64,000 nt of DNA from Coriobacteriia bacterium (GTDB lineage Bacteria > Actinomycetota > Coriobacteriia > Anaerosomatales > SLCP01), in NCBI GenBank assembly GCA_007121015.1, contig SKMN01000048.1, forward strand, positions 1,666-65,665. The letters run 5' to 3'. The notes under the pieces were generated by a model. It saw only the letters and a list, made by a program, of their open reading frames with translations. It had not been told where the DNA came from and made no database searches. Of the stretch, positions 840 through 51,909 are shown piece by piece (positions within the stretch are counted from its first letter, which is position 1; each line of letters starts with the position of its first letter). A program made the position numbers and the translations under genes.

Positions 840-2424
<1,585 letters not shown>

Positions 2425-2628
2425 GCGCGTCCGAGCGGCTGAACGGGCGACGAGGAAGTGGCGCTGGCGGCGTGAGGGCGAGCGTGTCTCGAGCGCGTCG
2501 CAGGGGAGAGGGCCACGTCGGACTGACGTAGCGAGACCCGGAGCGGGTACACACACCTATGCACGGCCCGAACGCCCGCGCGCGCCGGCTGTCCGGTGTC
2601 TGGCGGGGTATGCGAGGAGATGATGGTC

Positions 2629-3102
2629 ATGCAGAGTCTCGATGTGCGCTCGCCGGAGATGGTCCACGGGGGGCCGATGAACGCCCGGTACGCTCACCAG
2701 AAGTCCGGTGGGCTCAACCAGTCGCCTCCGATATACATAGAGGGACTTCCTTCCGGGGTCCGCTCTATCTCGGTCATGCTCGTCGACCGCGACGCCGACG
2801 ACTTCGTCCACTGGCTCATCGTCGACCTTCCGCCGCAGACCACCCGCCTTGCCGAAGGTGCCTCGGGCGGCGAGTTGCCGGGTGCAGCCCGCGAAGTCTA
2901 TAACAGCGCCGGCTCACTGGGCTACTTCGGCCCGAACCCGCCTCCAAGAAGCGGCGAGCACCGCTACGAGATCGTCGCTTACGGCCTCGACATCGATTCG
3001 CTCGAGGTGGCCGACCATGTCGACGCAGCCGCGTTCGACGCGGCTGCGCGGGAGCACGCTGTCGCGAGGGGAAGCGAATACTGGGTGTTCGAGAACCGCT
3101 AG
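2629..3102 (+). CDS. YbhB/YbcL (PEBP/Raf-kinase-inhibitor-like) family protein
   Basis: Motifs SPPIYIEGLP, DDFVHWLIVDLP and GPNPPPRSGEHRYEIVAYGLD are typical of bacterial PEBP. The start was chosen at the Met about 10 nt after GAGGAG; the ORF opens at 2596. Confidence 0.8.
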   Translation: MQSLDVRSPEMVHGGPMNARYAHQKSGGLNQSPPIYIEGLPSGVRSISVMLVDRDADDFVHWLIVDLPPQTTRLAEGASGGELPGAAREVYNSAGSLGYFGPNPPPRSGEHRYEIVAYGLDIDSLEVADHVDAAAFDAAAREHAVARGSEYWVFENR

Positions 3103-3175
3103 ACAGCCATCGCGCACGAGACGATCGAGACGCAGTCCGATGGGCCATGGACACGATAGGAGCAGTGTGGGAGCG

Positions 3176-7669: not shown

Positions 7670-8527
7670 GTGATAGGAATCCGAACCACGAGGATGGTCG
7701 TACTCCTGGTCACGCTGCTTGCTGGGATCTTGACCTTCGCGGGGTGCGCCGCCGAAGGGGCGCCCGAGCCTGAGACTCCGGCGCCCGCTGCCGAGACCTC
7801 GGACACCGGACTTCTCGTGTTCGCCGCCGACGGTGAGGAGCACGCACGCGAGGGCACGGTCTCGAAGGAAGGATGGAATATCACGTTCGAGCACGCCTAC
7901 GTGACGCTCGCCGACATCGCCGCTTACCAGACCGACCCGCCCTACGACGTGGATGCCGACGGCTGGGACCTCGCCTACGACCACATGGTCTCCCTCCCGG
8001 GTGAGTTCACGATCGACCTGGCCGACCCGGCATCCGATCCCGCGATCCTCGGGGAGGTCGCCGACGCGCCGGCCGGCTTCTACAACGCCTTCTCCTGGCA
8101 CATGGTTCGGGCCGCGTCCGGGCCCGCCGAGGGCAACTCCATCGTGTTCATCGGTACGGCCGAGAAGGACGGCGAGACCGTCGACTTCACGCTCCGCTTC
8201 GACCAGGAGCTCGCCTACCAGGGTGGCGAGTACATCGGCGACGTCCGCAAAGGCATCCTCGACGCCGGCGGTGAGGCCGAGGCCGAGATGACCTTCCACT
8301 TCGACCACTTCTTCGGCAGGGCCGACAAGGACGCCGACGATCCGCTGAACACCGACGCTCTCGGCTTCGATCCTCTGGCTGCGCTGGCCACCGACGGCGT
8401 GGTCGACGTCAGCCTCGGCGACCTGAAGGAATCGCTCAGCGCAGAGGACTATGCCAGGCTGGAAGACATCCTCGTCCACTTCGGGCACATCGGCGAGAAC
8501 CACTGTATCGCCGAACCTCTGGAGTAG
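7670..8527 (+). CDS. Secreted lipoprotein, first gene of the nickel/cobalt ECF operon (possible NikK-type extracytoplasmic component)
   Basis: It has a lipobox (LLAGILTFAGCAAEG) and an acidic mature domain. A strong RBS AGAGGAGGG precedes the start, and only 12 nt separate it from the next gene. Confidence 0.55.
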   Translation: MIGIRTTRMVVLLVTLLAGILTFAGCAAEGAPEPETPAPAAETSDTGLLVFAADGEEHAREGTVSKEGWNITFEHAYVTLADIAAYQTDPPYDVDADGWDLAYDHMVSLPGEFTIDLADPASDPAILGEVADAPAGFYNAFSWHMVRAASGPAEGNSIVFIGTAEKDGETVDFTLRFDQELAYQGGEYIGDVRKGILDAGGEAEAEMTFHFDHFFGRADKDADDPLNTDALGFDPLAALATDGVVDVSLGDLKESLSAEDYARLEDILVHFGHIGENHCIAEPLE

Positions 8528-8539
8528 AACGGCTGGCCG

Positions 8540-8992
8540 ATGGACAGCGTGCGAGCCCTCACCCTTATCGTGACGATGGCGTTCCTGGTGCTGGCGATGC
8601 CGGCCGAGGTCGCCCTGGGTCATGGCGTCGAACTGAGCGTCGCGCCGCACGAGAGCATCGAGGTGAACGCCGCCTACGAAGCGGGCGAGCCGATGGCCGG
8701 CGCCCAGGTCGCGGTGTTCGCTCCCGGCGAACCGGCCGAACCGTGGCTCCGCGGGAGTGTCGACGAGGAGGGGCGCTTCTTCTTCGTGCCCGACTCCGAC
8801 CGTCCGGGCACGTGGGAGGTGCAGGTCCGCCAGGCAGGTCATGGCGGCATCGTCCGGATCGAGGTCGAGCCGGCCGGAGTCGTAGAGGTCACGGGCGGGG
8901 GTCTCACCCCGCTACAGAAGGCTTTGATGGCGGCTTGCGTCCTCTGGGGCTCGATCGGCACGGCACTCTACTTCAAGAGAAGGGCTGTCTGA
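8540..8992 (+). CDS. Bitopic membrane protein with a beta-sandwich-like extracytoplasmic domain (possible NikL/CbiN-replacing component)
   Basis: It has an N-terminal signal/TM, a carboxypeptidase-regulatory-like core (EEGRFFFVPDSDRPGTWEVQV) and a C-terminal TM (ALMAACVLWGSIGTALYF). Its stop overlaps the cbiM ATG (ATGA). Confidence 0.5.
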   Translation: MDSVRALTLIVTMAFLVLAMPAEVALGHGVELSVAPHESIEVNAAYEAGEPMAGAQVAVFAPGEPAEPWLRGSVDEEGRFFFVPDSDRPGTWEVQVRQAGHGGIVRIEVEPAGVVEVTGGGLTPLQKALMAACVLWGSIGTALYFKRRAV

Positions 8993-9642
8993 TGCATGTC
9001 CCCGACGGTATCGTCCCGGTCTCGGTAGCCGCAGGCGGGTTCGCGGCCGCCGGGGGCGTCACGTGGCTCTCGCTGCGGAAGATCGAGCGTGCCCACACCG
9101 TTCCCCGGAACGGCGTCCCCAAAGCGTCGCTGCTCACCGCCGTCTTCTTCATGGCGTCGCTCATACACTTCCCGGTCCCGCCGACGAGCGTCCACCTCGT
9201 GCTCTCGGGGCTGATGGGGGTGGTGCTCGGGTGGTACGCCTTCCCGGCGATCCTCGTCGGACTCTTCTTGCAGGCGGTCATGTTCCAGCACGGGGGTCTC
9301 ACGACGTTGGGCGTGAATGCATGCATCATCGGTATCCCCGCGCTGCTCGCGCACCGCGTCTTCACTCTGCGGACGAGGTTCGGCGCTCGCCGGCGCGCTG
9401 CAGGCACCGCTGCACTGGGCTTCGTCGCCGCGTTCGTCGCGGTGGCGCTGGGGGCGGCAGCCGCCTCTCTCCTCATAGTCACGACGGTGCCTGCCCACCT
9501 CGATGCCGTTGTCGAGCGGACCGCTGTGACGGCACTCCTCTTCGCGCACGTACCCCTCGGCGTGATCGAGGGAATGTTCACGGCGATAGTGGTGCTGTTC
9601 TTGCTCCGGGTGCAACCAGGACTGCTGGAGGAGAGGTTCTGA
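8992..9642 (+). CDS. cbiM: ECF transporter substrate-capture component CbiM/NikM
   Basis: The N-terminus MHVPDG is the conserved metal-ligating Met-His terminus. The protein is multi-TM and ATGA-coupled on both sides. Confidence 0.85.
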   Translation: MHVPDGIVPVSVAAGGFAAAGGVTWLSLRKIERAHTVPRNGVPKASLLTAVFFMASLIHFPVPPTSVHLVLSGLMGVVLGWYAFPAILVGLFLQAVMFQHGGLTTLGVNACIIGIPALLAHRVFTLRTRFGARRRAAGTAALGFVAAFVAVALGAAAASLLIVTTVPAHLDAVVERTAVTALLFAHVPLGVIEGMFTAIVVLFLLRVQPGLLEERF

Positions 9643-10400
9643 TGCTTGCTCGAGCCACGCTGGCCGCACCCACCGCCACCTCGCTCGCACGGTGGGAAGT
9701 CCGCCTGAAACTCATCGGGCTCCTCTGTCTCGTGTTCGCTTTCGCGGGGGTCAACGATGTCCGCCTCTTGCCGGTGATGCTCGCGACCGCCTTCGTCGTC
9801 TACCGACTCTCGTCGCTCCCCTTCAGGTATCTCATATCGCGTCTGAAGGTGCCCGGGATCTTCCTCGTCGCGCTCGCCGTGGTGCTGCCCCTCTTCTCCG
9901 GCGAGACCGTGATCGCGCAGTTCGGGCCGGTGGCCCTGCGGCTCGAAGGCACCGTGTCGTTCGTGTCGATCGCCGCACGTTTCGTCAGTATCATCACCGT
10001 TGCGACCGTGTTGTTCGCGACGACGCCGATGCCCACGCTCGTCAGGGCGATGAACTCCCTCGGACTGCCCCCACTCCTCGGCGACATGCTGCTCTTCACG
10101 TATCGCTACATCTTCCAACTTGCCGAGGACCTCAGCCGGGCGCGGACCGCAGCCCGGCTGCGCGGCGCGGACCTCGGCTCGGTGCGTTCGGTCAAGACCA
10201 CGGCCTACATCATCGGGTCGCTCCTGATACGCAGCAACTGGCAGGCCGAGCGGGTCCTTGCGGCGATGACGCTTCGCGGGTACGGTGCTTCTCGGGCTCG
10301 ATCGCCGCGCCACGCGCCGCAGGCCTGGGACGTCGCCGGGCTTGTCGCGTGCGTGGCCCTGGCCGCCGTCCTGGCGCTCTTCCCGGTACTTGTCCTGTAA
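9642..10400 (+). CDS. cbiQ: ECF transporter transmembrane (T) component CbiQ/NikQ
   Basis: It shows typical CbiQ topology and the coupling-helix region ARLRGADLGS...RSNWQAERVLAAMTLRGY. Confidence 0.8.
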   Translation: MLARATLAAPTATSLARWEVRLKLIGLLCLVFAFAGVNDVRLLPVMLATAFVVYRLSSLPFRYLISRLKVPGIFLVALAVVLPLFSGETVIAQFGPVALRLEGTVSFVSIAARFVSIITVATVLFATTPMPTLVRAMNSLGLPPLLGDMLLFTYRYIFQLAEDLSRARTAARLRGADLGSVRSVKTTAYIIGSLLIRSNWQAERVLAAMTLRGYGASRARSPRHAPQAWDVAGLVACVALAAVLALFPVLVL

Positions 10401-42451: not shown

Positions 42452-45025
42452 TTACCGTGCTGCGAGCAGGACCGCCAAAAGGACCACGAGCATGATGGAG
42501 AGGGCGAGATCGAGGTCTCGGGTAACGGCGTTCGAGACCCGCCTCAGCGTCACGATGCGCTCCTGCTCGGGCCGGTCCTCGCCCCAGTCGGTGCGCTCTC
42601 TCGTGAACGCCGCGACGACGAGCTGGACGATGTCGGTGATCCAGGCGCCGAGCGTTCTTGGAAGCGGCGAAGCGGACGGCGAGGTGTCTGGCTGGACCGT
42701 CGGAGACGGGCCGAGAGGCCCCTGCGTATGCCAGCCGGGCGGCATCGTGCGTGCGATGTTCCCGGCGAAGTCCTCGGAGTGAAGGATCCGCACGACGAGT
42801 GTCGACATGTGCGGGATCACGTTCTCCCCTGCCATCCTGCGCAGGGCCAGGTCGTGCACGGCGGCGATGATGGTCTCTCTCGTGCGGTCCCCCGCCTCTC
42901 TCAGGGCGATCTCGACGGCTTCAAGAGAGCGCTCGGGATCGGATCGCACCATCCTCGTCGCCGTGGCGATGCGGTCGTTGCGCACCCGCCACGCGGTGTA
43001 GTCGACGATGTCTCGCACGGCATCGATGTACTCGTCGCAGCCTCGTCCCGGGCACGCCGGCGCCTCGCGTTGCCGTTCCTCGGCATGTGCCACGGCGTGT
43101 TCGACCGTGGCGACGCGATCGTCTTCCAGCACGTCACTGATGTGCTGGAAGACGATCGCTGCATGCCTGTCCGGCGAGCCCTCGACGATCGTCGCGATAG
43201 CGCGCTGCCTAGCCCTGCGCCACCGGAGTCGCATGAGTGAGGCACTCGCCGACGCCGACCGGATGGCCCGTGAGGTCGAAACGATGTGCGCCTCGTAGCG
43301 GGTGCCAGCGAGACTCGCCACCTGCAGCCCAGCCTCGATGGAGCGGTCGTACCAGTAGTCGATCGAGGCCCAGCGGGGGACACGTGCGCGAGACACGTCT
43401 ACGCGCGCATCGAGCGCGAAGATGGCGGCGCCCATCGCGAGGGCGAGCAGTGAGAAGCCGGCGTGCTCCCAGGTGAACTGGCGGTAGGAGACGAGTACCG
43501 ACGGGTCGAGACCGAACCCCTGCACGGCCGGGGTGATGGTGCTGTGCAGCAAGACCAGCGGCGCCCACCCTATGGCGAGCATCGCCGCACTCAGCGCGAC
43601 CATCCCCGCCAGCATGCGTGGTGACGCGTCCGCTACCTTCTTCAGCCCGGCGTTCGCCGGGCCACCGAACGTCATCCAGAGCAGTTTCGCGAGTACCGCG
43701 ACCGTTCCGCCGCCGGCGAGCACGAAGGCGGCTTCGAAGGGGCCGATCGCGCCGAGGAGGCGCACCGGTTCGGCTGCCTCGACAGCGTGGTGCAGGAGCG
43801 ACTTGCTCACGAATCCGTTGAGCAAGGGGAGCCCGGTTATCCCGGCGGTTGCGACGACCATGACGGTCAGCGTCTTTGGCATGCTGCGCCACAACCCGCC
43901 GAGGCGGCGCAGTTCCGTCGTGCCCGCATTCTTGAGGACGGCGCCCGCGCCGAGGAAGAGCGCGGCCTTGTAGAGCGCGTGGTTCACGATGTGATAGAGG
44001 CTGCCGGACAGGCCGTACGCGGCCGAGCGGTCACCCGTCAGATACGCCGCCGCCCCGAGTCCGGCGATGACGAAGCCGATCTGGCTGATGCTGCTGTACG
44101 CGAGCATCCGCTTCATGTCGTCTTGCGCAAGGGCGATGGCTACCCCGGCGATCGCCCCGGTCAGGCCTACCACGAGCAGCACGAGGCCCGCAGCCGCACT
44201 GGGATCGACGGAGAGGTCTATCCCTTCGGCAGGCACGAGCAGCATGTACAGCGTGCGCAAGATACCGTACGCACCTGTCTTGATGAGGACGCCCGAGAGC
44301 AGCGCGCTTGCCGGGGACGGGGCCACCGAGTGTGCGTCGGGAAGCCAGATATGCACCGGGAGCATACCCGCTTTGACGCCGAAGCCGAGTACCAGGAGTG
44401 CGGCCGCCAGCCAGCGCAGCGCCGACGTGTCCTCCTGGAAGGGGACGGGAGCGAGCGAATCGCCGCCACCGATGTGGAAAGTGAGCAGCACTCCTGCCAG
44501 CAGAAGGAAACCGCTCGCGATCGTCAGGACGAGGTACTTCGCGGCCGCCCGCTCCGCCTTTCCGGTACGCTTGTGCACCACGAACAGATAGGCGAGGAGA
44601 CCCATGAGCTCGAAGGCGAGGAAGAGCGTCACGAGGTCTCCTGCGAGCACGACCCCCATCGTCGCGCCCAGCGTCGCCAGCGCGGTGACGTGGAATCGGC
44701 TCGAGTCGTCGTCGTCTCGCAGGTAGTCGAGCGAGTGCACGGCGCAGCATGTCCACACGAAGGCGACGACGACCGTCAACAGGTGCGCGAACAGGTCGAG
44801 TGTCAGGGTCGCTTCGGCTAGCAGGAACGGGACCGACACGTGCAGCGGGTAGACGCCACTCGCGACCGGCACGAGCGCGACCGCAGCGACGAGGGTCGCC
44901 GAACTGGCCGCCACGACGAGCGCATCGCGCTGCCGACCCGCTCCGCCTACCACCCCTACGAGCGCCGCCCCGGCGAACGGGAGGCCTACGAGCGCGAGTA
45001 CGAGGGCCGTCATCGGACTCGGCAT
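42452..45025 (-). CDS. MrpA/NuoL-like antiporter-type subunit with a roughly 300-aa hydrophilic C-terminal extension and a terminal TM helix
   Basis: The proton-antiporter core has LAFELMGLLAY, HIWLPDAHSVAPSPASALLSGVLIKTG and HIVNHALYKAALFLGAG. The start was chosen at the ATG 6 nt after GAGGAGG and 14 nt after the upstream stop; the ORF opens at 45097. Confidence 0.82.
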   Translation of the reverse strand: MPSPMTALVLALVGLPFAGAALVGVVGGAGRQRDALVVAASSATLVAAVALVPVASGVYPLHVSVPFLLAEATLTLDLFAHLLTVVVAFVWTCCAVHSLDYLRDDDDSSRFHVTALATLGATMGVVLAGDLVTLFLAFELMGLLAYLFVVHKRTGKAERAAAKYLVLTIASGFLLLAGVLLTFHIGGGDSLAPVPFQEDTSALRWLAAALLVLGFGVKAGMLPVHIWLPDAHSVAPSPASALLSGVLIKTGAYGILRTLYMLLVPAEGIDLSVDPSAAAGLVLLVVGLTGAIAGVAIALAQDDMKRMLAYSSISQIGFVIAGLGAAAYLTGDRSAAYGLSGSLYHIVNHALYKAALFLGAGAVLKNAGTTELRRLGGLWRSMPKTLTVMVVATAGITGLPLLNGFVSKSLLHHAVEAAEPVRLLGAIGPFEAAFVLAGGGTVAVLAKLLWMTFGGPANAGLKKVADASPRMLAGMVALSAAMLAIGWAPLVLLHSTITPAVQGFGLDPSVLVSYRQFTWEHAGFSLLALAMGAAIFALDARVDVSRARVPRWASIDYWYDRSIEAGLQVASLAGTRYEAHIVSTSRAIRSASASASLMRLRWRRARQRAIATIVEGSPDRHAAIVFQHISDVLEDDRVATVEHAVAHAEERQREAPACPGRGCDEYIDAVRDIVDYTAWRVRNDRIATATRMVRSDPERSLEAVEIALREAGDRTRETIIAAVHDLALRRMAGENVIPHMSTLVVRILHSEDFAGNIARTMPPGWHTQGPLGPSPTVQPDTSPSASPLPRTLGAWITDIVQLVVAAFTRERTDWGEDRPEQERIVTLRRVSNAVTRDLDLALSIMLVVLLAVLLAAR

Positions 45026-45038
45026 GTGCGACCTCCTC

Positions 45039-46562
45039 TCATCGGGATCCCGCCAGTGATTCGGCCGCAAGGCGGGCGAGCGAGAGTGCGGACCCATCGG
45101 CGAACGCGGCGATCCCGAGTAGCGCCGTGATCGCGGTGAGCGCGACTATCGGCGCGAGCATGGACGGTGCGGCCTCGTTCCCGGGTCGGGCCGGGGCGAG
45201 CGACCCCTCGCGCTCCTCGGACGGCTCGCCGAGATACGCGATGCGCACTACCGGTAGCAGGTAGACGGCGGCGAGCGCGGCCCCGCCGAGAAGGACCACA
45301 AGGTAACCTCCCGCGCCCGCATCGAGCATGCCGTAGCCGAGGACCCACTTGCTCACGAAGCCCGCCAGCGGCGGGATGCCGATCAAGGCGAGAGCGGAGA
45401 GAGTGAACGCAGCCATCGTCACCGGGAACCGCCGCGCGATCCCTCCCATCTGGCTTACCCGCGTGATGCCCGCGTTTCGTGCGAGCAGCCCGGCGCACAG
45501 GAAGAGACACCCCTTCATGGACGCGTGGTTGGTGATGTGCACGAGTGCGCCTGTCAGCGGGCCGGGTGCGAGCAGGGACGCTCCGAGTGTGATGTATGCC
45601 ATCTGGCTGACCGTCGAATACGCTAGCCGTCGCTTGAGGTCGTCCTGTTTGATGGCGACCACTGCGGCGGAGATCGCCGTGAAGGCCGCAACGGCAGCGA
45701 GCCCGCGGTCGATGGCCAGGACAGCGAGCCATCGCGCTCCCACGACCTCGTAGACGACACGCACGATCCCGAAGGTGCCGGCGGCGACCATGACACCCGA
45801 CAGTGCCGCCGAGAACGGTGCGGGAGCGGCCGGGTGGGCATCGGCCACCCACCCGTGAAGCGGGAAGAGGGCAGCCTTCACCCCGAACCCGGCGATCAGC
45901 AGGAGGGCGGCGCCCGTGGCGGTGGTCGGAGGGGTGCCTGGTCCGAGTACGCCGCCGGCCGCGAAATCGGCAGCGCCCGAGGCGGAGAAGGCGAGGGCGC
46001 CGCCCATCACGAGCAAGCTCCCGCCGGCCGCGATGTAGACGATGTACTTGCGGGCCGCGGCGATCGCGCTGGAGGTGCCCTCGTGCACTATAAGAGCATA
46101 GGACATGATCGAGAAGAGTTCGTAGAAGGCGAGGAAAGTGATCAGGTCCCCGGCGTACGCGACACCCATCAGGCCCGCGAGACAGAGCATCGAGAACGTA
46201 TGGTATCGGCCTGCGTACCGGTCGTCGCGCAGGTAGCCGACGGAGAACACGAATATGAACGACCACAGCACCGCAACGCTCAGTCCGAAGAGAGCGCCTG
46301 CCGCGTCCACGCGGAGCGACAGGTACACGTCTGGCATCAGCCGGACCAGACGTATCTCGTGCGAGGACCCTGCGAGCACGCCGCGGACGAGTATCGCCGC
46401 GAACAGCGCCGAGGCGACGGGCGCGGTGCCGAGCAGGAGGAAGCGCCCACGTCGTGGCAGCCGACCGTAGAGCAGGGAGAGGCACGCTGCGGCGAGGGGA
46501 AGGAGAACCGCCCACAGCGCGGGTGATAGGAGGCTGTTCGAATGGACGGACATCCTAGTCAC
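45039..46562 (-). CDS. MrpD/NuoM/N-like antiporter-type subunit (third copy)
   Basis: It has AFYELFSIMSY, HGWVADAHPAAPAPFSAALSGVMVAAG and HITNHASMKGCLFLCAG. Confidence 0.85.
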   Translation of the reverse strand: MTRMSVHSNSLLSPALWAVLLPLAAACLSLLYGRLPRRGRFLLLGTAPVASALFAAILVRGVLAGSSHEIRLVRLMPDVYLSLRVDAAGALFGLSVAVLWSFIFVFSVGYLRDDRYAGRYHTFSMLCLAGLMGVAYAGDLITFLAFYELFSIMSYALIVHEGTSSAIAAARKYIVYIAAGGSLLVMGGALAFSASGAADFAAGGVLGPGTPPTTATGAALLLIAGFGVKAALFPLHGWVADAHPAAPAPFSAALSGVMVAAGTFGIVRVVYEVVGARWLAVLAIDRGLAAVAAFTAISAAVVAIKQDDLKRRLAYSTVSQMAYITLGASLLAPGPLTGALVHITNHASMKGCLFLCAGLLARNAGITRVSQMGGIARRFPVTMAAFTLSALALIGIPPLAGFVSKWVLGYGMLDAGAGGYLVVLLGGAALAAVYLLPVVRIAYLGEPSEEREGSLAPARPGNEAAPSMLAPIVALTAITALLGIAAFADGSALSLARLAAESLAGSR

Positions 46563-46565
46563 CCC

Positions 46566-48047
46566 CTACATCCCGAACGCCTGCGCGACGGCGGTCCGAG
46601 CGATCGACAGCGGCATGCCCGGCAGGTCGCTTACGAGGCCGAGCAGTATCACGAGGACGGCGCAGACGAGTGTCGGGTAGAGCAGCGACGGGCGGGCCTC
46701 GCCCAGCGTCGGTTCCTCGGACACCGGCTTGAAGAAGGCGAGATAGAGCATCGGGAACCAGTACGCGGCGTTCAGCAGCGCGCTCGCGGCCATGACGAGT
46801 GCTACCCACCACATCCCGGAGTCGAACCCGCCGACCGACATATGCCACTTGCTGATGAAGCCCGCAAGCAGCGGCATCCCCGTGAAGCCGAGCGCCGCCA
46901 CCCCGAAGGCGCCCATCGTCGCGGGCATCCGCCGTCCGATGCCGCTCATCTCACTGATGTTCGTCTTGCCGGTGGTCCGCTGTATCGCGCCGGCGGCGAA
47001 GAACATGGTCACCTTCTGCACCGCCTGGTTCGCGATGTGGACGACGGCCGCGACCGCTGCCCAGGGATTGAGTAGTGCGATGCCGAGAAGCACGTACGAG
47101 AGCTGGCTGACGGTCGAGTACGCGAGTCTTCGCTTGAGGTTGTCTTGCAGCAAGGCCATCACCGATGCGGCGATGATGGTGAATGCGGCGAGATAGGCCA
47201 GGGCGTCCGGGAGCCAGGTCTGTCGCAAGAGCTCGACGCCGAAGACATCGTGCACGGTGCGCACCACGCCGAACGCCCCTGCCTTGACGACCGCGACCGC
47301 GTGAAGTAGCGCGCTGACGGGTGTGGGCGCGACCATCGCTCGTGGCAGCCAGCCGTGGAGCGGCATGATCGCCGCCTTCACGCCGAACCCGAGCGTCAGC
47401 ATGACGAAGAGTATCGCAAGCACCGCGGGTGTCGTGTCTGGCGGCACGATGCCGTTGTGGCCGAACGCGAGGACGCCGTCCGACACGACGTAGGTCATCG
47501 CTATGCCGAGGAGTATCACGCCGCCGCCGGTGAGGGTGTAGGTGAAGTACGTGCGCCCGGCTCTCAGCGCCTCCGGCGTCTCGTCGTGGACCACGAGGGG
47601 GTAGGCGCTGATGGTGAGGACCTCGTAGAAGATGAAGAGGGTGAGCAGGTTCTCGGCGAGAGCCAGGGCGACCGTAGCGGAGACGCATAAGGCGAAGAAA
47701 CCGAAGAAGCGGCCCAGTGACCGCTCGCCCTTCATGTAGCCGATCGAATACACGGTCGCCACGACCCACAGCAGTGACGACACGGTCGCGAACGCCATCC
47801 CGAGGGCATCGGCACGGAACCCTATGCCGATGCCCGGCGCGAACTCGGCAAAACGGAAGGTGTAGGCGACGCCTCCCACGGTACCGGGAAGCATGGAGGC
47901 AACGATGATGAACTTGAGGAGCGCGGCGCTCATGCTCCAGAAGCGCCGCCAGCCCGCTCTGCTCCCGCCGATGAAGACGAGCAGTGCGCATACGAAGGAG
48001 ACCATCGGCGCGAGAGCCGGACGTATGTCCCACACCTCGACGGGCAT
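46566..48047 (-). CDS. MrpD/NuoM/N-like antiporter-type subunit (second copy)
   Basis: It has IFYEVLTISAY, HGWLPRAMVAPTPVSALLHAVAVVKAG and HIANQAVQKVTMFFAAG. Confidence 0.85.
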   Translation of the reverse strand: MPVEVWDIRPALAPMVSFVCALLVFIGGSRAGWRRFWSMSAALLKFIIVASMLPGTVGGVAYTFRFAEFAPGIGIGFRADALGMAFATVSSLLWVVATVYSIGYMKGERSLGRFFGFFALCVSATVALALAENLLTLFIFYEVLTISAYPLVVHDETPEALRAGRTYFTYTLTGGGVILLGIAMTYVVSDGVLAFGHNGIVPPDTTPAVLAILFVMLTLGFGVKAAIMPLHGWLPRAMVAPTPVSALLHAVAVVKAGAFGVVRTVHDVFGVELLRQTWLPDALAYLAAFTIIAASVMALLQDNLKRRLAYSTVSQLSYVLLGIALLNPWAAVAAVVHIANQAVQKVTMFFAAGAIQRTTGKTNISEMSGIGRRMPATMGAFGVAALGFTGMPLLAGFISKWHMSVGGFDSGMWWVALVMAASALLNAAYWFPMLYLAFFKPVSEEPTLGEARPSLLYPTLVCAVLVILLGLVSDLPGMPLSIARTAVAQAFGM

Positions 48048-49535
48048 CTAGCCTCCCCCCAGAAGCCGCATCACCCCGGGAAGGGCGATGCCGATCGGCA
48101 CCTGGGCGATGAGGCCCAGCGCCAGTGACGCACCCGAAAGAAGGACCACGGGGGCGAGCATATCGAGGGGCGGATCGACCGCTCTCTCGACCTCCTCGTG
48201 CACGGCGGGACGGAAGTAGAACGCGTTGACGATCCGGAGGTAGTAGATGAGCATCACGAGTGCACTGAAGACGAGCGTCGCGGCCAGGAGCGGACGGGCT
48301 GCGGCCACCGCTCCGACCGCCAGATACCACTTCGTCACGAATCCCGCAGTGGGCGGGACGCCGACGACGGATATCACGGCGACGGAGAGGGCACCGACGG
48401 TGATGGGCATGCGCCGTCCTATCCCGCGGAGGTCCGACACCGTGCGATACCCCGTCCGAAAGGTCAGTGCGCCGAGGGCGAGGAACAGCGCCGCCTTGAT
48501 GACCGCGTGATTGAAGATGTGTATCGATGCACCGGTGAGCCCGCTCTCGTTGAATAATCCCAGTCCGACGGCGATGTAGCCGATGTTGGAAACGGTCGAG
48601 TAGGCCAGCATGAGCTTGATGTCGTCTTGGATGAGTGCGAGGACCGCGCCGAACACGATCGCTATGGCGCCAAGGGTCGAAAGTCCCATGTTGAACGTGG
48701 GCAGATCGACGCCGCCGGCTCCCTGGAAGATATCGTAGGTCCGGATCAGGCCCACGATCCCCATCTTGACCACGAGTCCGGACAGGATCGCGCTCACAGG
48801 ACTTGGCGCGGCGGCGTGCGCGTCGGGTAGCCACAGGTGGAGTGGGAAGACGGCAGCTTTGGTCATGAAGCCGAGGGCGAGCGCCCCGAATGCAAGCACG
48901 ACTGGACGGTGTGGCACGCCGTCCGCGAGGCGATACGCCATATCGGCCATGTTGAGCGTTCCCGTCAGCTGGTAGAGCAGGCCGATCGAGAAGAGCACGA
49001 GCAGCGACGAGAACGCACCCATGACGAGGTACCTGAACGACGCCGCGGCCGCGACCTTCTGCTTGCCGTACGCGACCAGCGCGTAGGCCGACAGCGAGAA
49101 CAGCTCCATGAACACGAAGAGGTTGAAGAGGTCGCCGGTGAACGAGAAGCCGAGGAGACCCCCGAGGTTGATCAGCAAGAGCGCGTCGTAGGGGCCTCGG
49201 CGCGCCGCTTCGACCGCGTGGCGCGAGTACCGGACGCCGTAGAAGACCACCAGGGCGAACACAGGGGCGGCGAGTCCGACGAGGGCCCCGAACTGGTCTG
49301 CCCTCAGCTCGATCCCCCACGGAGCCAGCCACCCTCCGAGGTGGTGGGAGAAGGGGCCGACGTGCGAGACCCTCACGCTCACCATGAATGCGCCGGCACA
49401 CGTCACCGTCGTCACGAGTAGGGTCCACGCGGTCGCCACCCGGTCCGAGATCCGATGGAGTGGAAGGCACAGGGCTGCGCCTGTCACCGGGAGCGCAAGC
49501 ACGCTCACGAGGAGCTGTCCCGGCCACTCGCTCAT
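48048..49535 (-). CDS. MrpD/NuoM/N-like antiporter-type subunit (first copy)
   Basis: It has FMELFSLSAY, HLWLPDAHAAAPSPVSAILSGLVVKMG and HIFNHAVIKAALFLALG. The start overlaps the mnhC stop (ATGA). Confidence 0.88.
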   Translation of the reverse strand: MSEWPGQLLVSVLALPVTGAALCLPLHRISDRVATAWTLLVTTVTCAGAFMVSVRVSHVGPFSHHLGGWLAPWGIELRADQFGALVGLAAPVFALVVFYGVRYSRHAVEAARRGPYDALLLINLGGLLGFSFTGDLFNLFVFMELFSLSAYALVAYGKQKVAAAASFRYLVMGAFSSLLVLFSIGLLYQLTGTLNMADMAYRLADGVPHRPVVLAFGALALGFMTKAAVFPLHLWLPDAHAAAPSPVSAILSGLVVKMGIVGLIRTYDIFQGAGGVDLPTFNMGLSTLGAIAIVFGAVLALIQDDIKLMLAYSTVSNIGYIAVGLGLFNESGLTGASIHIFNHAVIKAALFLALGALTFRTGYRTVSDLRGIGRRMPITVGALSVAVISVVGVPPTAGFVTKWYLAVGAVAAARPLLAATLVFSALVMLIYYLRIVNAFYFRPAVHEEVERAVDPPLDMLAPVVLLSGASLALGLIAQVPIGIALPGVMRLLGGG

Positions 49536-49882
49536 CGGCCGCCCCGCAACTCATCGGCTTCGATGGTGCCATGCTCGGCGTGTATCCGCGTGACGAGGCT
49601 GAGCGCGAGTGCCGTGACGCTGACCGCGACGACGATGCCCACGAGCACGATCGTCTGGGAGACCGGGTCGTGGTAGGGGGACGTCGTGTCCTGCGTCACG
49701 AGTGGCGGACTGCCGTCTCGGGCAAGACCGCCCGTGATGATGAATATGAAGACGGCCGTCTCCATGATGTTGAGTCCGATGATCTTCTTGATGAGGTTGC
49801 TCTTCGCCACGAGGGCGTAGAGGCCTATCAGGAAAAGGATGATGGCGAGGACGTAGTCGGCCCTGTCGAGCAACATCGTCAT
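49532..49882 (-). CDS. mnhC: Na+/H+ antiporter subunit C (MnhC/MrpC, NuoK-like)
   Basis: It has LAIILFLIGLYALVAKSNLIKKIIGLNIMETAVFIFII. The internal ATG overlaps the mnhB stop. Confidence 0.85.
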   Translation of the reverse strand: MTMLLDRADYVLAIILFLIGLYALVAKSNLIKKIIGLNIMETAVFIFIITGGLARDGSPPLVTQDTTSPYHDPVSQTIVLVGIVVAVSVTALALSLVTRIHAEHGTIEADELRGGR

Positions 49883-50589
49883 GCGCGTCCCTCCATCGAC
49901 CAGAACACCGATGCGATGATGGCCGCGCTTGCCGCGCCGATTCCCGCCTCGATGAACAGCATCAGCCACTCTCGCGCCCACGGGAGGGCGGCCGTAGAGG
50001 GGTACGCGAACACTCCGGCGCCAGTGAGGGGTCCGATGGCTGCGAAGAGGAGGAACACCACCATCGCCGCCCCGTGCAGCCACGCCGCGACGTGCTCGGG
50101 CAGGAACTCTCGGGCATGGTCCGAGCCCACGCCGAGAGAGAGGGATATCGCCGCAGCACCAAGGATCACCCCACCCTGGAACGCACCGCCCGGGCCGGCA
50201 TGGCCGGAAAGGACCAGGTAGGTTCCGAAGATCACGATCGCCGGCACCGTGCGGCCGACGACGTAGCCGGTCACCTGTCCAGGGGCGGCCCGGTCGTGGT
50301 GTCCGCCGGAGCCGGACCGGTCCCGCGGGGGGAGGACGGCGAGCACACCGGCGAGTGCGGTGAAGATGACCGCCGCCTCGCCAAAGGTGTCGAAGAGGCG
50401 GTACTCGAGAAGCACGGCCTTGACGATGTTCGTGGTACCGACCTCTTCTGCCCCCTGTTCGAGGTAGTGCTGTGAGACGTGCGAGCGGAACGGCATCTCG
50501 GGAGAGCCCGGGGCGGGCAGTTCGACGACTGCTGACAGCAGCATGACCGCCAGCAACGCGAGCAGGAGGAGTGTCGCAAGCCGTCTCAT
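49879..50589 (-). CDS. mnhB: MnhB/MrpB-domain subunit (MbhE/F-like)
   Basis: It has NIVKAVLLEYRLFDTFGEAAVIF and GHAGPGGAFQGGVILGAA. The ATG overlaps the upstream stop (ATGA). Confidence 0.8.
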   Translation of the reverse strand: MRRLATLLLLALLAVMLLSAVVELPAPGSPEMPFRSHVSQHYLEQGAEEVGTTNIVKAVLLEYRLFDTFGEAAVIFTALAGVLAVLPPRDRSGSGGHHDRAAPGQVTGYVVGRTVPAIVIFGTYLVLSGHAGPGGAFQGGVILGAAAISLSLGVGSDHAREFLPEHVAAWLHGAAMVVFLLFAAIGPLTGAGVFAYPSTAALPWAREWLMLFIEAGIGAASAAIIASVFWSMEGRA

Positions 50590-50828
50590 CGTTCTTCTCG
50601 CTCGGTCCGTTCGATGGCGAGTAGGAACAAGACAGTGGTCACGCCGGCCCCCACGGCCGCCTCGGCCAAGGCCACGTCGGGTGCGCCTCGGAATTGCCAT
50701 AAGACCGAGAGCACGAGTCCGTAGACGGCGAACACGACCACGGATGTCGTGAGGGCCTTCGCGCTCACCGCGAACACGGCTGTCGTGATCAACAGGACGA
50801 ACAGGAGCACATCGAGAGCCTCGGTCAC
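50586..50828 (-). CDS. DUF4040 protein (MrpA C-terminal-region / MbhD-like subunit)
   Basis: It has GAPDVALAEAAVGAGVTTVLFLLAI. Its GTG overlaps the mnhG stop (GTGA). Confidence 0.72.
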   Translation of the reverse strand: MTEALDVLLFVLLITTAVFAVSAKALTTSVVVFAVYGLVLSVLWQFRGAPDVALAEAAVGAGVTTVLFLLAIERTEREER

Positions 50829-51142
50829 TGGTCTCGCCTCCAGGGTACGATGCCGATGCGATACGACGCGCGTGCCAGTGCATGGCCGGATGTCGGGCTG
50901 TAGACCGCGATGAGCGCAAGCAGCGCAACGAGCTTGAGCGTCTGTGGATCGATCCCTTGTCTGAGTATGAGCGCCACGATGAGCAGTCCCGCGCCGAGCG
51001 TGTCGCACTTCGTTGCGGCGTGGGTCCTACAGTAGAAGTCCGGGAAGCGAAGGAGCCCGACCGTGCCGGCCACGAAGAAGAACGTGCCGAGGCACGCGAG
51101 TACCAGGGACATCATCTCGACGATCACGGAGACATCCGTCAT
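50825..51142 (-). CDS. mnhG: Na+/H+ antiporter subunit G (MnhG/MrpG)
   Basis: It has GTVGLLRFPDFYCRTHAATKCDTLGAGL. Confidence 0.85.
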   Translation of the reverse strand: MTDVSVIVEMMSLVLACLGTFFFVAGTVGLLRFPDFYCRTHAATKCDTLGAGLLIVALILRQGIDPQTLKLVALLALIAVYSPTSGHALARASYRIGIVPWRRDQ

Positions 51143-51414
51143 CGCGGGTTCCCTTTCAATCGTCCGGTCTCCAGCATCCGTGAGGCCGCCAGGGCGATCA
51201 CGTAGTTCAGCAGTCCGTAGACGATCGCCACGTCCGCGAACATCTCGCGGTCGAACGCGTGAGCGATGAGCGCGAGCAGCACGAGGGTCTTGGTGCCCAC
51301 CACGTTCACCGCGAGGAGCCTGTCAGGCAGCGTGGGACCGAGCGCCACTCGCAGCAGACAGAGGAGTGCATTCGCAAGCAGGATGACTGCGAGCACCTGT
51401 AGTACGGGGAACAT
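51139..51414 (-). CDS. mnhF: Na+/H+ antiporter subunit F (MnhF/MrpF)
   Basis: It has LLCLLRVALGPTLPDRLLAVNVVGTKTLVLLAL...DVAIVYGLLNYV. Confidence 0.85.
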   Translation of the reverse strand: MFPVLQVLAVILLANALLCLLRVALGPTLPDRLLAVNVVGTKTLVLLALIAHAFDREMFADVAIVYGLLNYVIALAASRMLETGRLKGNPR

Positions 51415-51417
51415 CGC

Positions 51418-51909
51418 TCACTCTTCCAGGGCTTGTGCGATCCGGTATTCGATGCGTCCTTCTTCGAGGGCGTCGGCGAAACGCTCGGACAAGCAGTGCA
51501 CGAGAACGGTGCCGTCGTCTGAGTCGAGTGCCAAGGTACCCGGGGAGAGGGTGATAGTGTTGACGTACAGTGCCTGCGAGAGCGTGCGCGACAGGCCGGT
51601 GTCGCGCTCCACCACTCGGGGGGCGAACGACGGGTGTGGCCGCAGCGCGTCCCACGCCACCTGCACGCCCCCGGTGACGGTGCTCCATACGAGTGCCGCA
51701 GCGTGTCCGAGCAGTCCGAGAGCTCGGTGTGGCGTCAGCCGGGGTGCGCGCTCCGCCACCGTCAGGCGCGGGACCCACCGGGCGAGCGCCGCGCATACGA
51801 CGAGTCCGATGGTCACCTGTTCGATACTCGGGGTACCTACCAGCAACAGCCAGAAGGCCATGAGGACCGCCGATGTCCGGGCAAACCTCGCTCCGTTCAC
51901 GTCGCACAC
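51418..51909 (-). CDS. mnhE: Na+/H+ antiporter subunit E (MnhE/MrpE)
   Basis: It has FWLLLVGTPSIEQVTIGLVV...LYVNTITLSPGTLALDSDD. The start is uncertain because an internal Met is possible. Confidence 0.8.
   Translation of the reverse strand: MCDVNGARFARTSAVLMAFWLLLVGTPSIEQVTIGLVVCAALARWVPRLTVAERAPRLTPHRALGLLGHAAALVWSTVTGGVQVAWDALRPHPSFAPRVVERDTGLSRTLSQALYVNTITLSPGTLALDSDDGTVLVHCLSERFADALEEGRIEYRIAQALEE

Follow-up and report, generated by a model that had tools for sequence, protein, structure and literature searches.

A putative inserted helical domain in the lateral clamp of a four-antiporter Group 3 Mrp subunit from a Coriobacteriia bacterium

The lateral helix of NuoL and MrpA has long been debated as either a mechanical coupling element or a simple clamp. 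In Mrp complexes and complex I, this helix (HL) runs from transmembrane helix (TM) 15 to TM16 on the cytoplasmic side and braces the complex (PMC7419157), and truncation of the NuoL C terminus gives a fragile complex (PMC3274701). A 64,000-nucleotide stretch of DNA from a Coriobacteriia bacterium (contig SKMN01000048.1, positions 1,666 to 65,665; here called the window) holds an Mrp-type operon whose last gene encodes a NuoL/MrpA-like antiporter-like subunit. After TM15, this protein continues for ~315 hydrophilic residues and then ends in one terminal TM helix. What is this tail, and how much of it is clamp? An original prediction, made from the letters of the window, had described a hydrophilic extension of ~300 residues with a single TM helix at its end and had offered two explanations for it, an elongated clamp or an added soluble domain. 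We consider it likely that the tail is a NuoL/MrpA-type clamp of the distal subunit of a Group 3 Mrp complex with an accessory cytoplasmic all-alpha domain inserted into it. Lateral clamps on antiporter arrays are a well-known architecture, and the gain is incremental; what the window adds is a real, conserved, undescribed variant of it.

Composition of the tail

The terminal gene occupies 42452..45025 on the minus strand and encodes 857 amino acids plus a stop codon, an assignment based on its translation, its PF00361 match, its identity to a database protein, and GC content at third codon positions (GC3) that is high in one frame. The longest open reading frame (ORF), 42452..45097 on the same strand, is uninterrupted and would give 881 amino acids. 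The database form (P0001), which is 100% identical, starts at M25 (45025) and has 857 residues, and the N termini of homologues favor this shorter form. Use of the ATG at 45097 would create a 59-nt overlap with the upstream MrpD-like gene (stop codon 45039-45041); a start at Met25 leaves a 13-nt gap. Residue numbers refer to the 857-residue form unless the 881-residue form is named. GC3 is 0.79-0.89 in a single frame across the entire gene. A frameshift or a separate gene had been named beforehand as a possible undoing of the extension; the frame is continuous, and a GC3 scan along the whole gene gave no sign of a frameshift or of a hidden separate gene.

Residues 563-881 of the 881-residue form correspond to 42455-43411, and their translation holds AIFALDARVDVSR, CPGRGC, GPLGPSPTVQPDTSPSASPLP, and a terminal LALSIMLVVLLAVLLAAR. 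The tail is 13.8% alanine and 13.2% arginine, with 42 Arg, no Lys, and 43 Asp plus Glu residues. Kyte-Doolittle analysis detected no hydrophobic segment from TM15 (residues ~519-542) to the last helix, which is centered on residues 841-848 and peaks there at 2.75. Translation, hydropathy, and the AlphaFold2 (AF2) model described below agree on the tail as it was first described.

The distinction between clamp and insert comes from shorter homologues. Proteins of 651-721 amino acids (P0098-P0100, P0103, and P0111) keep both flanks of the tail, HxxAPxWFGVDYWY...YE at its start and EDR..TRxxIQRYARDMSxNV plus the TM helix at its end, and lack ~190 residues in the middle. When a hidden Markov model (HMM) of the tail was compared with a 690-residue homologue, positions 2-50 and 245-323 matched and positions 51-244 were missing. 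This homologue (locus L004) has ~130 residues from TM15 to the last TM helix and is encoded in an identical 10-gene operon with four antiporter genes. Therefore, the clamp of such an array would need only ~110-130 residues, and the remaining ~190 residues would be an insert. Terminal subunits of three-antiporter clusters (710-748 amino acids) match the tail HMM at positions 1-56/66 only, which is the first part of the lateral helix (HL1); since HL1 is common to these distant subunits, we take it to be the start of the ancestral lateral helix. By this comparison, the tail is composite, and its predicted ancestral clamp is made up of HL1 (the first ~60 residues) together with HL2, HL3, and TM16 (the last ~75 residues). 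The region thus sits where the original prediction had placed it, in the position of the NuoL/MrpA lateral helix and C-terminal anchor. Of the two explanations offered there, the added soluble domain agrees with the AF2 helices and with the short homologues, and a clamp made of all 300 residues does not agree with the 690-residue form.

Of the 2,495 matches from a full-length search, we looked at the best 120. About 105 of these 120 homologues are 828-942 amino acids long and 35-41% identical to the query over 92-97% of its length, and P0002 is 59% identical to it. The homologues stem from NCBI, JGI, ENA, and Logan assemblies. Whether orthologues keep the extension was a question raised together with the prediction; most do, and the lateral helix and the anchor are present even in the short ones. 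A word-indexed homology search with the tail alone gave no match, which reflects the sensitivity limit of the word index and not an absence of relatives.

In an alignment of 107 of these homologues, the tail is conserved throughout, with the exception of a Pro/Ser-rich linker, which has between 14 and 117 residues in the different members. All 107 sequences have R671 and R685. About 20 more tail positions are at least 90% conserved, including G616, E636, R637, R642, R730, G733, E751, W795, R828, R836, and D837; in the HL3/TM16 region, I831, R833, Y834, and N841 also reach this level, each individually, beside R828, R836, and D837. G616, in a TGAPG-type turn, is conserved in 97%. The CPGRGC pair that had been highlighted at first is not a feature of the family. 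It lies at 43037..43054 on the minus strand, in the loop between the first and second helices of the insert, and occurs in 2 of the 107 sequences (the window protein and P0002), while the matching alignment columns are variable in the others. The motif is lineage specific, and with this distribution we rejected it as a metal or redox site.

A neighbor-joining tree of the antiporter core, which carries no support values, places short forms among and beside long forms and has the lineage of P0001 and P0002 branching deep. This tentatively suggests that the ancestor of the clade had the insert and that it was lost on several occasions. The family can be seen as a natural experiment on the lateral helix, in which a domain of ~190 residues and a linker of 14-117 residues would have been gained midway along the helix and lost again in some lineages that retain the operon. 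A lateral element that tolerates such large interruptions is more readily understood as a brace than as a rigid piston.

Predicted structure and role of the insert

We modeled the full-length monomer with AF2 from the 107-sequence alignment (mean predicted local distance difference test [pLDDT] score, 85.3; predicted template modeling score, 0.73). AlphaFold modeling of the full protein had been proposed as a check on the original prediction, and it returned the helix-rich tail, four confident helices in its middle, and the terminal TM helix. HL1 (residues 546-613, 43187..43390 on the minus strand, as are all tail elements) carries the motif HxxxPxW..DYWY and contains a 59-residue helix at positions 555-613, followed by a low-confidence turn at the conserved TGAPG. 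The inserted all-alpha domain (42746..43186), delimited by the AF2 model, by conservation, and by its loss in the short homologues, comprises the TGAPG-type turn at residues 614-619 and helices at 620-654, 663-695, 697-731, and 737-760. These helices are 24-35 residues long with pLDDT values mostly of 85-96, and with their short loops they most plausibly form an antiparallel four-helix bundle. The Pro/Ser-rich linker follows (residues 761-786, 42668..42745), with a pLDDT of ~40 and the highest entropy of any block in the alignment. HL2 (residues 787-811, 42593..42667, with the conserved W795) is predicted as a low-pLDDT helix and is common to the short homologues. So is the last element, HL3 plus the TM16 anchor (residues 820-857, 42455..42568), which is defined by hydropathy and conservation and in which TRxxIQRYARDxSLNV precedes the hydrophobic helix; AF2 predicts one low-confidence helix at 820-856 that contains the TM segment. 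A tail-only run (28 sequences; pLDDT, 80.8) gave elements that agree with those of the full-length run, and the helices of the insert again scored mostly 85-96. HL2 has a mean hydropathy of 1.5 and a hydrophobic moment of 1.27, and HL2 together with the part of HL3 before the TM helix is strongly amphipathic (moments of 1.27-1.68).

Next, we looked for relatives of the insert. Neither Pfam nor NCBIfam gave a match on the tail, and a relaxed Pfam scan of 28 members returned no consistent family. In a profile search of all PDB sequences, the best hit had an E value of 0.52. A Foldseek search of the PDB with the tail model reached an E value of 0.035 at best, with query TM-scores no higher than 0.25, and its top hits were generic designed helical repeats. 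The statement of the original prediction that the region belongs to no recognized family therefore stands, since none of these searches made a confident assignment. When 1.84 billion representative proteins were searched exhaustively with HMMER, only 61 matched; those inspected are the C termini of family members of ~800-970 amino acids or fragments of them. By these searches, the predicted domain occurs only in this family of terminal subunits. We also considered the insert as a stand-alone protein and rejected this, as the short HMMER matches begin inside the antiporter core and are fragments. An internal duplication (hairpin of helices 1 and 2 versus hairpin of helices 3 and 4) gave a weak in-register hhalign signal (E=0.003; probability, 10%), and we do not claim it. 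A literature search found no paper on this insert. The insert is a candidate for a new domain family, as a conserved domain with neither a Pfam family nor a structural relative.

How could such a tail be arranged on the complex? The chain would leave TM15 on the cytoplasmic side, and HL1 (~60 residues, ~90 Å) would lie on the membrane surface across the L-like subunit and the D subunit next to it. At the conserved TGAPG turn, the chain would depart from the surface into four antiparallel helices, probably a four-helix bundle, and the flexible linker of variable length would bring it back. HL2 and HL3 (~45 residues, ~65 Å) would then continue along the remaining D subunits, and TM16 would enter the membrane close to the proximal end of the array, which it would lock. 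We infer this path from secondary structure, not from coordinates. The lengths of the clamp parts are ~59 residues or ~88 Å for HL1, ~25 residues or ~37 Å for HL2, and ~18 residues or ~27 Å for the part of HL3 before the TM helix, which sum to ~150 Å. A 26-residue HL insertion is reported to accompany one more pump subunit (PMC9040806). Because 26 residues of helix span 39 Å and ~150 Å is close to four times this increment, we read the clamp parts of the tail as a four-pump brace. Within such a brace, the insert would most likely act as a cytoplasmic buttress that stiffens or positions it, and its invariant arginines could contact loops of the D subunits.

Some of the results weigh against a clamp with a buttress. 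HL1 has only weak amphipathic character here (hydrophobic moment, 0.2-0.9), and both HL2 and HL3 carry low pLDDT values. The packing of the bundle and its placement relative to the D subunits are drawn from secondary structure and pLDDT alone. Several lineages without the insert keep the operon, and the insert is therefore not structurally required. Finally, the conserved charges of the insert (R671, R685, E636, R637, R642, R730, and E751) exceed what a passive spacer needs and could mark a binding site instead.

These charges, which are invariant or nearly so and cluster in the soluble helices, also point to a second reading that we hold to be rather unlikely, namely, that the insert is a regulatory or partner-docking domain. 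It would then either sense pH, Na+, a nucleotide, or a small anion in the cytoplasm or serve as a docking site for another complex or for a soluble partner. Consistent with this are the retention of the insert across Actinomycetota, Gammaproteobacteria, and a metagenome-assembled genome (MAG) labeled Eubacteriales and the names of many source MAGs, which suggest soda-lake or serpentinizing sites if we read their site codes correctly. However, neither Pfam, NCBIfam, PDB sequences, nor Foldseek revealed similarity to sensor or binding domains. Furthermore, no conserved partner gene flanks the operon, since the neighbors differ in the window and in loci L001, L002, and L004, and several losses of the insert have probably occurred without loss of the operon. 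In its fullest form, this alternative makes the four-helix domain a new kind of cytoplasmic control or coupling module in the middle of the brace that senses a signal or docks a partner, such as a second complex or an energy-input protein, and relays this to the four antiporter-like subunits. We hold this, too, to be rather unlikely; if it were true, the lateral helix would work as a lever for regulation and not just as a clamp.

It is still less probable, and in our view improbable, that all ~300 residues form one long clamp, a hairpin or coiled coil along the array or across a dimer, with the compact bundle as an artifact of monomer prediction. The whole region is helical, other subfamilies have hydrophilic spacers of 191-262 residues, one of them with tandem repeats of ~26 residues, and HL length scales with subunit number (PMC9040806). 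However, a spacer ~190 residues shorter is found in the same four-antiporter operon elsewhere, and a single helix of 300 residues would measure ~450 Å, compared with ~150 Å for four subunits. In addition, helices of 24-35 residues with short loops, the G616 turn, and high pLDDT values are what a folded bundle would typically show, and the region is broken up by a disordered linker of 14-117 residues. To an artifact (read-through, frameshift, or gene fusion in the assembly) we give practically no credence, because its sole sign is the overlap of the longest ORF start (45097) with the upstream gene, and against it stand a single open frame in which GC3 is high throughout, over 100 independent homologues that match the protein in length and architecture, and the recurrence of the gene in the same operon in several phyla. 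We therefore return to the clamp with an inserted domain and consider the operon in which it occurs.

The antiporter core, the operon, and known relatives

The core of the terminal subunit comprises TM1 to TM15 (residues 1-542, 43400..45025 on the minus strand), predicted by AF2 as helices with pLDDT values mostly above 90. It matches PF00361 (Proton_antipo_M) with an E value of 1e-55 and 189.5 bits against a cutoff of 21.5, over residues 152-445 of the 881-residue form. E139, K218, H345, H349, and K353 are invariant in the 107 homologues, and at least 90% of these have K408; from the AF2 helices and what is known of NuoL, we take these to be the proton-path residues (Glu of TM5, Lys of TM7, His/His/Lys of TM11, and Lys of TM12). 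In a sequence profile search of the PDB, MbhH (6cfw_H) was the best match to the core, with MrpA and NuoL also near, and the match to MrpA reached chain residue 588 and ran into HL1. By fold, Foldseek placed MrpA (7qru_A and 6z16_A) first and also found MbhH (6cfw_H) and NuoL. A C-terminal module of the NuoL/MrpA type follows, with TM15 at 519-542, an all-helical hydrophilic segment at 546-837, and the terminal TM helix at 838-856. The best NCBIfam model was HyfB/hydrogenase-4 subunit B (NF005086), aligned to residues 33-524 and ending before the tail. We rejected this assignment, as the match has 281.5 bits against a cutoff of 667 and the operon has no hydrogenase genes beside it.

The gene closes a row of ten codirectional genes in the order MnhE-F-G-MbhD-MbhE/B-C-D-D-D-L, all on the minus strand. 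The proximal Mrp module (49532..51909) consists of MnhE (51418-51909), MrpF (51139-51414), MnhG (50825-51142), MbhD (~50586-50840), MbhE/MnhB (~49879-50592), and an MnhC/NuoK-like gene (~49532-49882), with PF01899, PF04066, PF03334, PF13244, PF20501, PF04039, and PF00420 matched across the module. Three MrpD-like antiporter-like subunits follow at 48048-49535, 46566-48047, and 45039-46562, assigned by PF00361 (E values of 8.5e-65, 4.7e-53, and 1.8e-51 for the genes in 45039..49535) and by MrpD-type NCBIfam models. With three PF00361 genes before the terminal one, the four-antiporter array of the original prediction is borne out. Group 3 Mrp clusters are defined by an irregular gene order, no classical MrpA, and the possibility of multiple mrpD copies (PMC8415708, PMC5703873). 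The window operon has all Mrp subunit types and no MrpA with a fused MrpB domain, as expected for a Group 3 Mrp (CPA3) cluster, and by gene content it is a stand-alone Group 3 Mrp with four antiporter-like subunits. Cation/proton antiport by the complex is a prediction from homology only.

In the window, an S15 peptidase gene and an ATP-grasp gene flank the operon. The ATP-grasp protein (PF13535 and PF02786; 41015-42325, minus strand) is encoded 126 nt downstream of the terminal gene on the same strand as the operon. A terminator and promoter scan 3' of the terminal gene found nothing, including no terminator-like site before the ATP-grasp gene. This gene is not kept beside the operon in the other genomes compared (L001, L002, and L004), and the flanks of the operon in the window and in these three loci contain no hydrogenase or NuoB/D/H-like genes. 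In L002, a Coriobacteriia MAG, a GGDEF-domain gene (2248-3144) lies directly upstream of the operon and overlaps the mnhE start; it has no counterpart at this place in L001, L004, or the window.

Wenzhouxiangella sp. XN24 (L001) and Coriobacteriia MAGs (including L002) have this ten-gene operon as well, likewise with three D genes ahead of the long one, and among GTDB representative genomes the operon was found in Coriobacteriia and Actinomycetota. Genes for the long form also lie on truncated contigs of Thioalkalivibrio and Gammaproteobacteria and in the MAG labeled Eubacteriales. The named carriers among the matches listed are mostly Coriobacteriia/Actinomycetota, with one Wenzhouxiangella. 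The clade is a distinct four-antiporter Group 3 Mrp that occurs widely among haloalkaliphilic Gammaproteobacteria and uncultured Coriobacteriia/Actinomycetota. Many carriers (L006-L085) have MAG names with codes such as CSSed, T1Sed, and CROMO, which presumably denote soda-lake, alkaline or saline, or serpentinizing sites. Alkaline or saline carriers, as judged by these codes and by the presence of Thioalkalivibrio and Wenzhouxiangella, fit a role in Na+/pH homeostasis.

How does this subunit compare with those of known complexes? Like MrpA of Groups 1 and 2 (6z16_A, 7qru_A, and 7d3u_A), it is the distal subunit, with a cytoplasmic helix after TM15 that would brace MrpD and a TM helix next. 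However, the MrpA chain goes on after HL into a fused MrpB-like domain (TM17-21), whereas the window protein ends at TM16 and the MrpB-like part is encoded separately (MbhD and MbhE/MnhB). The window array also has three MrpD copies, compared with one beside MrpA, and an unrelated helical domain of ~190 residues in the HL region. NuoL has ~610 amino acids and an HL ~110 Å long. With NuoL/Nqo12/ND5 of complex I (3rko_L and 4he8_L), the window protein shares the 15-TM core, the lateral helix, and the TM16 anchor, but the NuoL HL has no inserted domain and the window operon has no adjoining redox module (NuoB/D/H-like). The fragile complex that results from NuoL truncation is consistent with a clamp role for this region.

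Lengthening of HL with extra pumps occurs in NuoL of the Nitrospira "2M" complex I and in MrpD2 of the Complex_I_3 of "Ca. Manganitrophus" (PMC9040806). The ancestral clamp parts of the window family (~110-130 residues) are longer than those in three-subunit complex I. However, the Nitrospira and Manganitrophus insertions given there are ~26 residues of helix, whereas the window insert has ~190 residues and is predicted to fold on itself. Unlike those 26-residue insertions, the window insert is not accounted for by subunit count. The proximal gene order and split of the window operon are those of MBH and MBS and of the stand-alone Group 3 Mrp of Pyrococcus furiosus (mrpEFGBB'CD) (PMC8415708). 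The P. furiosus Mrp differs in having a single MrpD and no L/A-like subunit, and MBH carries its lateral helix on a separate small protein, MbhI (MbsH' in MBS). A soluble helical-bundle insert is found in neither P. furiosus Mrp nor MBH.

Lateral-helix spacers in other Mrp-type loci

We surveyed the spacer from TM15 to TM16 in 80 Mrp-type loci by a crude hydropathy scan, with four 4-gene arrays (L017, L018, L042, and L047) left out because their values were uninformative. Spacers measured 44-96 residues in loci with two antiporter genes, 93-262 with three, and 58-350 with four, gene counts being lower bounds on truncated contigs. These lengths vary widely, and we dismissed a simple rule by which the spacer would grow in proportion to the number of subunits. 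The HL region of Group 3 terminal subunits appears from these comparisons to be an insertion hot spot. We also rejected homology of the window insert to the long spacers of two other types of terminal subunit (759 and 806 amino acids), since only the first ~30 residues align.

The 759-residue type has a repeat structure of its own. In L049, the terminal gene (7830-10109) and its similar counterparts in the Syntrophomonadaceae loci L051, L056, L059, and L066 have a spacer of ~191 residues with tandem repeats of ~26 residues (DSxLDxFYEKSGKAARKLADRSTDM). The repeat length equals the per-subunit HL increment given in PMC9040806, yet these clusters hold only three antiporter genes.

In Wenzhouxiangella sp. 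XN24, a second Mrp-like cluster (L001:13488-22096) stands in tandem directly after the first. It comprises E-F-G-MbhD-MbhE/B-C, two D-like genes (479 and 524 amino acids), and a gene for a 520-residue protein without a Pfam match. Its terminal subunit has 577 amino acids (636 by our own ORF call) and a TM15-TM16 spacer of ~88 residues.

Finally, ORFs of 95-166 amino acids lie 3' of the genes for the terminal subunits of three-antiporter clusters (710-748 amino acids) (L032:13687-14106, L029:13886-14335, and loci L021, L022, L025, L033, L039, and L041). They match the HL1 part of the tail profile (best E value, 3e-5, and weaker in several loci) and, very weakly, its TM16 end. These ORFs may encode stand-alone lateral-helix proteins reminiscent of MbhI.

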